Assembly: GCA_965224415.1 (NCBI GenBank)
Contig: CBDCZB010000004.1
Location: 667,070 to 731,069 of the forward strand
Direction: 5' to 3'
DNA length: 64,000 nucleotides
Origin: Dehalococcoidia bacterium
GTDB taxonomy: Bacteria; Chloroflexota; Dehalococcoidia; Lucifugimonadales; JAGWBF01
Positions within the stretch are counted from its first letter, which is position 1. The number at the start of each line of letters is the position of its first letter. The notes beneath the pieces are model-generated. The model saw only the letters and a list, made by a program, of their open reading frames with translations, did not search any database and was not told the origin of the DNA. Below, piece by piece: positions 21,905 through 23,998 of the stretch. Made by a program: the position numbers and the translations under genes.

Positions 21905-23253
21905 TTAGCCTCCCGGCCCAGCTTGTCCAGGTAGCCAAGCCTGGCTTGGACGGCCCTGGCGTGCCCCGTCAGGCCCTCGGCGTTGGCTATGGTCGTGGCC
22001 GCCGCCGCCAGTTCAGGATAGGTTTCAGGTTTGAGGCCCACCACTGGCACAGTCCGCAGGAAGTGGTGCACGCTCAGGGCAGAGGAAAACCTGGCGCTCC
22101 CTCCCGTGGGCATAACATGGCTGGGACCGGCTATGTAGTCTCCCATCACTTCGGGGGAGAAGGACCCCAGGAAGAGGCCGCCCGCGTGCTTAACCTTGCC
22201 CGCCCAGTCCCAGGGACGGTCTATCATCAGGCAGAGATGCTCAGGGGCGATGTGGTTGGCCAGGTCTATCGCTTCGTCCAGAGTGTCCACCAGGATGACC
22301 TTGCCCCGCTGTTCCATCGAGGCTCCCGCCATCTCGCTGCGGTCCAGCAGCGTCAGCTGACGCTCCAGTTCCCCCTCCACCTCGCCAATCAGAGCCAGGG
22401 AAGTGGTCACCAGTATGGGAGCGGCGAGGGTGTCGTGCTCCGCCTGGGCCAGGAGGTCGGCAGCGCACAATTCCGGGCTGGCCGTCTCGTCGGCAATGAC
22501 CACCGTTTCCGTTGGGCCAAACAGGCCGTCGATGTCCACTCCTCCGAATACCATCTTCTTTGCCAGGGTGACGAAGATGTTCCCTGGGCCGCATATCTTG
22601 TCCACCTTCGGCACGGATTCAGTGCCGTACGCCAGGGCACCGATGGCCTGCACACCCCCAATCCTGAAAACCCGGTCCACGCCGGAGATGGAGGCCGCGG
22701 CCAGCACCGCCGGATTGAGGTCTCCGCCTCTTTGGGGCGGCGACGCCAAGATTGTCTCATTCACCCCAGCCACGCGGGCGGGAACGGCTGTCATAATCAC
22801 GGTGGAAGGGTAGGCCGCAGTGCCGCCCGGCGCGTATATGCCGACCCGTTCTATGGGCGTCACAAGCTCTCCCAGGCCGCTGCCAAGGTCAACCCAACTC
22901 TTACGCATTGTCGCCTGGTGGAAGTGTTCCACCCGGTTGGCGGCAAGCTCCAAGGCTTGGAGAAGCTCCGGGGACAGCTGTGCCCGGGCGCGGTCTATCT
23001 CGGCGGCTGTGACCTCTAACGATTCCGTCTCGAATCCGTCGAGCAGCTTGCCGTATCTCCTGACCGCCTCGTCGCCCTGGGACTCCACGTCTTGCAGAAT
23101 GCGCCTGACCGACTGCTCCGGCGTCAGGCGTTCACCGAAAACGGACTCGGTCCTGTCCCAGACCTCATCGGGAAGCGAGCCCAAGTCAGCCGGGTCCACC
23201 CGATAGCGTTCGGTTTTCGCCTGTGCCAAACCTCTGATGACTCTAAGTTCCAA
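21901..23253 (-). CDS. hisD: histidinol dehydrogenase
   Basis: [19 protein letters not shown] and IAPEHL motifs. Confidence 0.95.
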
Positions 23254-23998
23254 GAATGTGCTCCCTAATAAACCGTGAAGCGGCTCTTACCGCCTTGTCT
23301 TGAAAGAAGTGTATCTGTTCACGGGGCGCCACGCTGTAGACCTCCTCCAGTCCGGTTTCCACGTCCTCCAGGAATTCTTCTACTATCTGCGTCGCGTGCT
23401 CTCCGTCCTGGTAGAGGCGCTTGGCGGCGAATCTTAGCCGCTCCCAAGTGAACTCCCACTCCGTGAACTTGCTGACCCACTCGCTCCACTCCCGCAGCGT
23501 CTCCTCGTTGATGAAGCCTATGGCTACGTCAACCTCCGAGCCGAGCAGCATGGCCCTGGCGTCGTGGAAGTCGTCCATCTCCAACCGGGCAACCCTGTCC
23601 ATTTCCAACTGGGCGGCGCGGTCCCACAGGTTGGCCCTGACCTCGTCGCCGAAGGAAGCTCCGTTGTGGAAGTAATTGCGGTAAATCTCCACGATCCAGG
23701 TCTCGTCGGCGACGAGGTGGGTGAAGTATCCGGCCAAAAAGGCTTTGGTAGGCCCGGACAGGTTCTCGGAACGTCCCAAACCGGGATGGGCGTCGAACAG
23801 ACCTCTAATGCCCGAACCCACGTCCTCAAAGTCCAGAGGCGCGAAGTGGGTGTCGTCCCTCTTGGACTTGGTCATTATGCGGATGTCGGGAGAAGTGGAG
23901 CCAAGCAGGAAACTGCCCATGTGGGCCATGATTTCCGGGTCTGCCAGATTGTCTGCTGTCCTGCTGGCCAGGGAAAGATGAGTCGGCAGGTTAGGCAT
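23243..23998 (-). CDS. zinc-dependent phospholipase C / P1-nuclease-fold family protein
   Basis: PTHLSLA, LGSTSPDIR, DDTHF and GYFTHLVADETW line up with the Zn ligands of the alpha-toxin N-domain (THA, GSTYPD, DHFW, HYFGD). It overlaps the hisG stop by 8 nt and the hisD start by 11 nt. Confidence 0.6.
   Translation of the reverse strand: MPNLPTHLSLASRTADNLADPEIMAHMGSFLLGSTSPDIRIMTKSKRDDTHFAPLDFEDVGSGIRGLFDAHPGLGRSENLSGPTKAFLAGYFTHLVADETWIVEIYRNYFHNGASFGDEVRANLWDRAAQLEMDRVARLEMDDFHDARAMLLGSEVDVAIGFINEETLREWSEWVSKFTEWEFTWERLRFAAKRLYQDGEHATQIVEEFLEDVETGLEEVYSVAPREQIHFFQDKAVRAASRFIREHILGT

Follow-up and report, generated by a model that had tools for sequence, protein, structure and literature searches.

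A gene between hisG and hisD of Dehalococcoidia as a candidate histidinol-phosphate phosphatase

The DNA analysed here is a stretch of 64,000 nucleotides from contig CBDCZB010000004.1 of a Dehalococcoidia bacterium (assembly GCA_965224415.1, positions 667,070 to 731,069), referred to below as the window. It contains a histidine operon of six genes on the minus strand (26671-20195). The third of these genes, designated X, lies between hisG and hisD and is the subject of this work (Table 1). A sequence-only reading of the window had given the gene order as hisZ-hisG-X-hisD-hisC-hisB and had put X forward as the missing histidinol-phosphate phosphatase (HolPase). The order was confirmed with Pfam and NCBIfam, the first gene being hisZ-like.

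Table 1. Genes of the his operon and a nearby phosphatase gene in the window
Feature	Coordinates	Strand	Assignment
hisZ-like gene, histidyl-tRNA synthetase (HisRS) paralogue, first gene of the operon	25130-26671	minus	PF13393
hisG, ATP phosphoribosyltransferase, long form with HisG_C	23991-25091	minus	PF01634 + PF08029; TIGR00070 + TIGR03455
Gene X, 251 aa, cytoplasmic all-alpha protein	23243-23998	minus	Dehalococcoidia-specific branch of Pfam Zn_dep_PLPC
hisD, histidinol dehydrogenase	21901-23253	minus	PF00815, E=2e-154
hisC, histidinol-phosphate aminotransferase	20798-21904	minus	PF00155, E=5e-62
hisB, imidazoleglycerol-phosphate dehydratase (IGPD) only, 199 aa, last gene of the operon here	20195-20794	minus	PF00475 over the whole protein
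HAD-IB, MtnX-like phosphatase gene, DFDET motif	15436-16242	plus	TIGR01489, 96 bits against a cut-off of 81.55

The reading frame of X, read directly from the sequence, extends from the ATG at 23998 to the TAG at 23243 and encodes 251 amino acids. The stop codon of hisG (TAA, 23993-23991) lies inside ATGCCTAA, within codons 2-3 of X, and the two genes overlap by 8 nt. The hisD gene starts with a TTG at 23253 and overlaps the last 11 nt of X. Both overlaps are as the sequence-only reading had described them. The TTG at 24031 was considered as a start of X and rejected: the N-terminus of the family, MP(N/T/S)LP.H, is nearly invariant and always begins at the methionine encoded at 23998, which sets the start of X at this position. 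The ratio of nonsynonymous to synonymous substitution rates (dN/dS) of X is 0.045-0.11 against four close orthologues, and the gene is under strong purifying selection. Its GC content at third codon positions (GC3) resembles that of the adjoining genes, and AlphaFold2 gives a confident all-alpha model (predicted local distance difference test, pLDDT, 93.4; predicted template modelling score, pTM, 0.92). Because of the low dN/dS, the neighbour-like GC3 and the confident structure model, X is regarded as a real gene and not a chance open reading frame (ORF). The hydropathy maximum of its product is 0.87 over 19 residues and the N-terminus is not hydrophobic; neither a signal peptide nor a membrane segment was revealed by hydropathy analysis.

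The family of X comprises about 550 proteins. A word-indexed search returned 550 of them, an exhaustive profile search of 1.84 billion cluster representatives returned 540 at E<=0.001 and 116 at E<=1e-30, and a scan of one genome per species returned 417. The best 80 of these 417 all come from Dehalococcoidia, Chloroflexota or SAR202 metagenome-assembled genomes, and every named member of the family is from Chloroflexota, mostly Dehalococcoidia. In their sources, which name Chloroflexi or Dehalococcoidia as the origin in every case, the homologues carry the labels 'hypothetical protein' or 'zinc dependent phospholipase C family protein'. Within the literature library searched, no paper was found that assigns a function to the family or ties it to histidine.

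The surroundings of X were compared in two sets of loci: 80 genome loci, in which identity to X goes down to 41%, and 86 more distant loci (28-40% identity) from ENA, NCBI and JGI contigs. The hisD gene is located directly downstream of X in all 80 genome loci and in all 71 distant loci with room for it, 151/151 in total. Directly upstream of X, hisG is found in 79/80 genome loci, where it is preceded by hisZ, and in 75 of the 78 distant loci with room (154/158 in total). The arrangement of his genes around X persists to 28% identity. The spacing between hisG and X is mostly -8 to +4 nt; X mostly overlaps hisD by 4 to 38 nt, and overlapping or abutting the hisD start is the rule across the loci. 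Further downstream, the position of hisC is kept in 80/80 genome loci whose sequence extends far enough. In two independent lineages, one represented by L060 and the other by L158, L163 and L164, hisZ-hisG lies elsewhere and X heads the arrangement X-hisD-hisC-hisB. X is located between hisG and hisD, with overlapping start and stop codons, in essentially all of the approximately 160 loci. The sequence-only reading had named recurrent linkage of the family to his genes as a test of its proposal, and the linkage that the loci display is very strong.

Accessory genes occur inside the operon at several loci: between X and hisD in L040 and L064, between hisD and hisC in L050 and L051, and between hisC and hisB in L077. 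Judged from their sequences and not by a Pfam scan, they look like a RelA/SpoT-like nucleotidyltransferase, a Uma2-like endonuclease, a KaiC/RecA-like ATPase and repeat proteins, and they were rejected as phosphatases.

The product of X matches the Pfam family PF00882 (Zn_dep_PLPC, zinc-dependent phospholipase C) with E=1e-9 and 39 bits, the cut-off being 26.8, and 86 of 91 diverse members of the X family match it at E<=0.01. The match is limited to the N-terminal half, with residues 6-111 of X aligned to profile positions 1-97 of 167. The four motifs that the sequence-only reading had likened to those of phospholipase C (PLC) are present in this half, namely T6-H7-L8, L32GSTSPD38, D48DTHF52 and F92THLVAD98, and PDB 1ca1 was used to verify the equivalent motifs of C. 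perfringens alpha-toxin, THA, LGSTYPD, QDHFW and MHYFGD. In an alignment of 91 family members, reaching down to ~22% identity, D38, R47, H51, G90, H94 and D98 are invariant, and M1, P2, H7, G33, P37, F52, Y91, W101 and W171 are nearly invariant. The residues H7, D38, H51, H94 and D98 correspond in order and spacing to H14, D55, H69, H118 and D122 of Bacillus cereus PLC: the gaps between them are 31, 13, 43 and 4 residues in X, 41, 14, 49 and 4 in the B. cereus enzyme (1ah7), and 45, 12, 58 and 4 in alpha-toxin. Zinc ions 1 and 3 of the solved enzymes are bound by these five residues and by the amine of the N-terminus. The putative metal ligands of X are the N-terminus (Pro2), H7, D38, H51, H94 and D98; of these, the N-terminus, with its invariant Met-Pro, may correspond to W1 of PLC. 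The nine-ligand set of 1ah7 (W1, H14, D55, H69, H118, D122, H128, H142 and E146) is incomplete in X; position 104 of X is variable, and position 126 is Asp in the his-linked clade and His in paralogues.

Comparisons with the solved enzymes themselves gave no significant matches. Profile searches of PDB sequences with alignments of 25 and 91 family members returned only chance matches, such as RhoA and designed helical bundles. In a Foldseek search of the X model against PDB no match reached E<1, TM-scores were about 0.15, and no PLC or P1 nuclease was among the 50 listed matches. Neither B. cereus PLC by itself nor its pairing with alpha-toxin gave a significant hhalign result for X, although against the pair D38-D55 and H51-H69 fall in register in a weak alignment (E=0.19). 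The PLC fold proposed by the sequence-only reading is backed by the match to PF00882, but not by Foldseek, profile search or hhalign. It is the Pfam model that appears to tie X to real PLCs, and X is regarded here as distantly related, in truncated form, to the PLC/P1 metal site, with a PLC fold that is putative.

If X were a true phospholipase C or nuclease with lipids or nucleic acids as substrates, carried as a passenger in the his operon, this would agree with the name of the Pfam family and with the label 'zinc dependent phospholipase C family protein' that NCBI gives to some homologues. Such a role is highly improbable. The product of X lacks a signal peptide and a membrane segment, while the characterised PLCs are secreted; the profile match stops at 97 of 167 positions, the third zinc site is absent, and no similarity to solved PLCs is detectable. 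Furthermore, in a passenger gene the overlaps of start and stop codons within one operon would not have been preserved across 28-100% identity.

The his-linked members of the family are distinguished by a second group of residues. D126, R127 and Q130 are each at least 95% conserved in 351 members assigned as his-linked by sequence similarity. The paralogues without his linkage, which are ~22-27% identical to X and none of which lies near his genes, have H, N and R at these positions and keep the five ligand residues. Since the his clade and the non-his paralogues differ there, the helix with D126, R127 and Q130 is likely to be a specificity element. Two of the non-his paralogues overlap the start of the next gene, which is an FMN_dh gene in one case and a short-chain dehydrogenase/reductase (SDR) epimerase/dehydratase gene, followed by a GT4 glycosyltransferase gene, in the other (L081, 6001-8027; L095, 1104-2902). 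No shared theme was found among the paralogue contexts, which comprise the FMN_dh gene, the SDR epimerase and glycosyltransferase genes, and one contig end.

The textbook histidine pathway contains two hydrolytic steps: the conversion of histidinol phosphate into histidinol by HolPase and the conversion of phosphoribosyl-ATP (PR-ATP) into phosphoribosyl-AMP (PR-AMP) by HisE. Taken together, the ligand pattern, the cytoplasmic location, the operon membership and the clade-specific residues suggest that X hydrolyses a phosphorylated intermediate of this pathway. We propose that X is a dedicated metallo-phosphohydrolase of histidine biosynthesis, most likely a HolPase, and place the probability of this assignment at about one in three. 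According to this proposal, X would be translated in step with HisG and HisD by means of the overlapping stop and start codons. In the folded protein, H7, D38, H51, H94 and D98 and the N-terminal Met-Pro would build a two-metal site of the Zn1/Zn3 type, which would activate a water molecule for the attack on the phosphate ester, while R47 and the D126-R127-x-x-Q130 helix of the his clade would hold the substrate. The clade-specific Asp could bind the amine of the substrate; for HisN, the Asp of motif 5 has been proposed to bind the substrate amine (PMC5516325). The reaction catalyzed by X would be the hydrolysis of L-histidinol phosphate to L-histidinol and phosphate. HisC would supply the substrate, and the product would be taken over by HisD, the gene of which is always downstream of X.

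Several observations favour the HolPase assignment. The tie of X to hisD is absolute and survives the departure of hisZG from the operon; with X as step 8, the detached X-hisD-hisC-hisB module would correspond exactly to steps 6 to 10. By analogy, the chemistry would be suitable, as PLC/P1-type sites cleave esters and P1 nucleases cleave monoesters as well. The product of hisB is a dehydratase only: it aligns solely to positions 165-354 of the model of bifunctional HisB, NF003937, and has no phosphatase domain. The sequence-only reading was therefore correct in describing it as monofunctional. No homologue of HisN or of HisB-N, the HAD-type phosphatase domain of HisB, was found within 10 kb in the 80 genome loci or in the window. 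A tblastn search with three Dehalococcoidia HisN sequences detected hisN in 0/80 of these loci within 10 kb, and none in the 64-kb window or in L001-L086. Homologues of E. coli HisB-N, HisF and HisIE were not found in the window or in these loci. PHP domains gave no match in the 20 window ORFs scanned with Pfam, the loci not having been searched for PHP-type HisJ/K. X itself does not belong to the known HolPase families (HAD HisB-N, PHP HisJ/K and IMPase HisN), its matches being PF00882 in Pfam and none in NCBIfam. If the proposal is true, X would be a further type of HolPase, unrelated to the known ones.

The situation is different in more distant relatives of the window. On a neighbour-joining tree of X, the presence of hisN is described by two changes, with a basal grade that has hisN and a derived clade, including the window, that does not. 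In the basal clade, 34 loci are informative, these being the distant loci with enough sequence past hisB. The hisN gene lies in the same operon and on the same strand, 20 to 2,700 nt after hisB, in 21 of them; in L088, L096, L106, L142, L150 and L153 it is only 20-50 nt past hisB. The best NCBIfam match of this IMPase-family gene is TIGR02067 (his_9_HisN) with 199-248 bits, against a strict cut-off of 275 and less than 100 bits for the next family. It carries the HolPase motif 5 RG[FY]GDFWxH, the motif 4 RGxPxWxT and a non-glycine residue at position 219 of motif 6; the HolPase-specific motifs of HisN were defined experimentally by Kulis-Horn 2017 (PMC5516325). Close homologues bear the NCBI name 'histidinol-phosphatase [Dehalococcoidia bacterium]'. 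Five further co-occurrences of X and HisN, all in the basal clade, were found among the top 120 of 7,911 HisN matches. In L139, one metagenome operon has the order hisZ-hisG-X-hisD-hisC-hisB-hisI-hisN (13913-14329, 14334-15179). IMPase proteins 38-40% identical to HisN have been reported as phosphoserine phosphatases in genomes with another HolPase (GapMind 2026). By comparison with these, the HisN-like gene of the operon could in principle have another function, which is less likely given its motifs and position.

The ancestral operon was probably hisZ-hisG-X-hisD-hisC-hisB-hisN. X coexists with HisN in the basal lineages. In the derived clade of the window, the operon no longer contains hisN, and the sole HolPase encoded there may be X. 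That a new class of HolPase with a PLC/P1-derived two-metal site took over from HisN in a large marine and subsurface clade of Dehalococcoidia is a possibility we put forward only tentatively. Repeated independent loss of hisN, which would favour redundancy of the two enzymes, was considered and is not shown, the tree requiring two changes only.

The HolPase assignment has to be weighed against a number of findings. The foremost is the long coexistence of X with HisN in one operon in 21 of the 34 basal loci: all 21 copies of hisN are intact, with all catalytic motifs and the HolPase motif 5, and it would be unusual for one operon to retain two unrelated enzymes for one step over such a deep divergence. 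None of the conserved residues of X is lost, with or without hisN, and since X is conserved equally where hisN is present, it looks non-redundant with HisN. As the tree needs two changes only, the absence of hisN near the operon of the window could reflect one relocation rather than a loss. A second candidate for the step is also present. The HAD-IB gene of Table 1 is located beyond purB, ~4 kb from hisB, on the opposite strand, and is syntenic in 34/80 genome loci. SerB-like HAD-IB enzymes are HolPases in several Proteobacteria (PMC5764234), and by this analogy the product of the gene is a possible alternative HolPase. With regard to the active site, the third-zinc ligands H128, H142 and E146 have no conserved counterparts in X, and solved PLC or P1 structures and sequences show no significant similarity to it by any of the three methods used. 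Finally, the named members are all from one phylum and local synteny is very stable, so the linkage of X to his genes is partly shared ancestry. The claim of the sequence-only reading that X fills the place of a missing HolPase may hold for the clade of the window, where hisN is not found within 10 kb of X, but does not hold for the basal loci with an intact hisN. Its expectation of a complementary distribution, with X in his operons that lack another HolPase, fails for the family as a whole, HisN being encoded in the same operon in its basal part.

The long coexistence with an intact hisN would be expected if X served the other hydrolytic step as a non-orthologous PR-ATP pyrophosphohydrolase in the place of HisE, HisN remaining the HolPase. 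Such an enzyme would remove the product of HisG and pull the unfavourable first step forward. X overlaps or abuts hisG in most loci, as would suit this role, and hisE-hisG operons are known in Actinobacteria. A hidden Markov model built from four solved HisE sequences revealed no HisE homologue in 175 loci or in the window, and L139, the only operon with hisI, encodes a monofunctional HisI of 138 aa without a HisE domain. The absence of hisE near X says little, however, because hisA, hisF and hisH are also absent from the loci, and hisI nearly so. PR-ATP pyrophosphatase is also the second commonest gap in amino-acid biosynthesis, affecting 9% of prototrophs (GapMind 2026). We nevertheless consider the role of a HisE substitute unlikely. 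X stays with hisD-hisC-hisB when hisZ-hisG is detached, and its linkage to hisG is slightly weaker than the 151/151 linkage to hisD. In addition, X has few conserved basic residues for a substrate with four phosphates, and its PLC and P1 relatives cleave esters and not anhydrides. X gave no match to PRA-PH, the HisE family of Pfam.

The presence of X beside a full set of late-step genes including hisN, in strict operon membership, would also agree with a his-linked role outside the ten textbook steps. Such a role could be the loading or buffering of metal for HisD (Zn) or HisB (Mn), the regulation of HisG, or the hydrolysis of damaged or side-product phosphates. The conserved His/Asp cluster could bind metal without catalysis, the HisG architecture in these lineages is unusual, and since Foldseek finds no PDB neighbour, a function cannot be transferred from a relative. 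On the other hand, histidine biosynthesis offers no precedent for a factor of this kind. The pattern of the conserved residues is the catalytic one of a hydrolase family, and the non-his paralogues retain the ligand residues too, which suggests a common chemistry and not a partner-specific role. We regard a role of this kind as doubtful.

The remaining genes of the operon and its surroundings show some features of their own. The ORF of the hisZ-like gene, of up to 513 aa, scores 208 bits with the NCBIfam model of hisS (cut-off 287) and 198 bits with that of hisZ (cut-off 272). It contains an internal insertion and a faint anticodon-binding-like C-terminus, and the true start of the gene is probably downstream of 26671. 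Long-form HisG normally functions without HisZ; in the window, the long form with HisG_C nevertheless adjoins the HisZ-like gene. In the basal clade, the product of hisG has ~469 aa and is made up of two HisG catalytic repeats in tandem; each half aligns to HisG of the window (e.g. L091, 8557-9966). Beyond hisB, two DUF3105 paralogues flank a purS-like ORF (18496-19227, 19142-19495 and 19528-20205, plus strand), the latter being named by eye and by synteny with purS of related loci. The interval between hisB and purS in the basal-clade relatives contains hisN, sometimes together with a pyroglutamyl peptidase gene. A fragment of a DDE_3 transposase gene is located at 33762-34394 on the plus strand. 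No leader RNA of the operon was found in the window with Rfam, the only Rfam match being a tRNA gene (48882-48953, plus strand), and no internal promoter or terminator pattern was seen on the operon strand. Sequencing runs that contain the locus were found, and none of them is marked as RNA.

The assignment of X bears on the reconstruction of amino-acid biosynthesis from genomes. HolPase is the commonest unfilled gap in these pathways and is missing from 20% of prototrophs (GapMind 2026). Because of such gaps, auxotrophy and cross-feeding are predicted falsely, above all in uncultured groups like SAR202 and other Dehalococcoidia. For one of the two most frequent gaps, X is a well-delimited candidate, consisting of a single gene of ~250 aa with a clear list of residues, and if the HolPase assignment is true, its class would fill one of the amino-acid biosynthesis steps most often 'missing'. 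A function for X would also relabel a family that is now annotated as 'zinc dependent phospholipase C family protein' or 'hypothetical', and would provide an example of a metal site, otherwise familiar chiefly from secreted toxins and nucleases, that serves biosynthesis in the cytoplasm. The coexistence of X and HisN further indicates that operon context alone cannot settle the step at which a hydrolase acts.

Compared with the known enzymes of the proposed step, X resembles HisN (TIGR02067) in the reaction it would catalyze and in sharing an operon with it in basal relatives. HisN differs in having an unrelated alpha/beta fold and using Mg, and in the 21 loci it is co-resident with X and not a substitute for it. 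HisB-N (HAD), HisJ/K (PHP) and the SerB-like HAD-IB enzymes also catalyze the reaction proposed for X; they have no sequence relation to it, and X contains neither DxDxT nor PHP motifs. The variety of these HolPases shows that the step has been reinvented several times. HisE (MazG-like; PDB 1y6x) is, similar to X, a small all-alpha protein and a metal-dependent hydrolase of the histidine pathway, the gene of which is often beside hisG. No sequence relation between it and X was found, and it uses Mg in a site of the EExxE type and cleaves an anhydride.

The closest resemblance is to the zinc-dependent PLCs (1ah7 and the N-terminal domain of alpha-toxin, 1ca1). X shares with them the five ligands in the same order and with similar spacing, scores above the PF00882 threshold, and is all-alpha with a conserved N-terminus, as they are; the LGSTxPD and (D/T)HF motifs are common to X and alpha-toxin. 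X differs from these enzymes in that it has no signal peptide, matches only the first part of the profile, carries 140 C-terminal residues specific to its own family and is encoded within a biosynthetic operon. The P1/S1 nucleases, which belong to the same Pfam clan, are comparable in their zinc-cluster phosphoesterase chemistry. These nucleases also remove 3'-phosphomonoesters, so such a site can act as a phosphatase. They differ from X as secreted glycoproteins with nucleotide substrates, and X gave neither a Pfam match to S1-P1_nuclease nor a Foldseek match to P1/S1 nucleases. Among these systems, X is best filed as a putative new variant of the PLC/P1-type metal site that functions in the cytoplasm and in biosynthesis, with L-histidinol phosphate as a candidate substrate.

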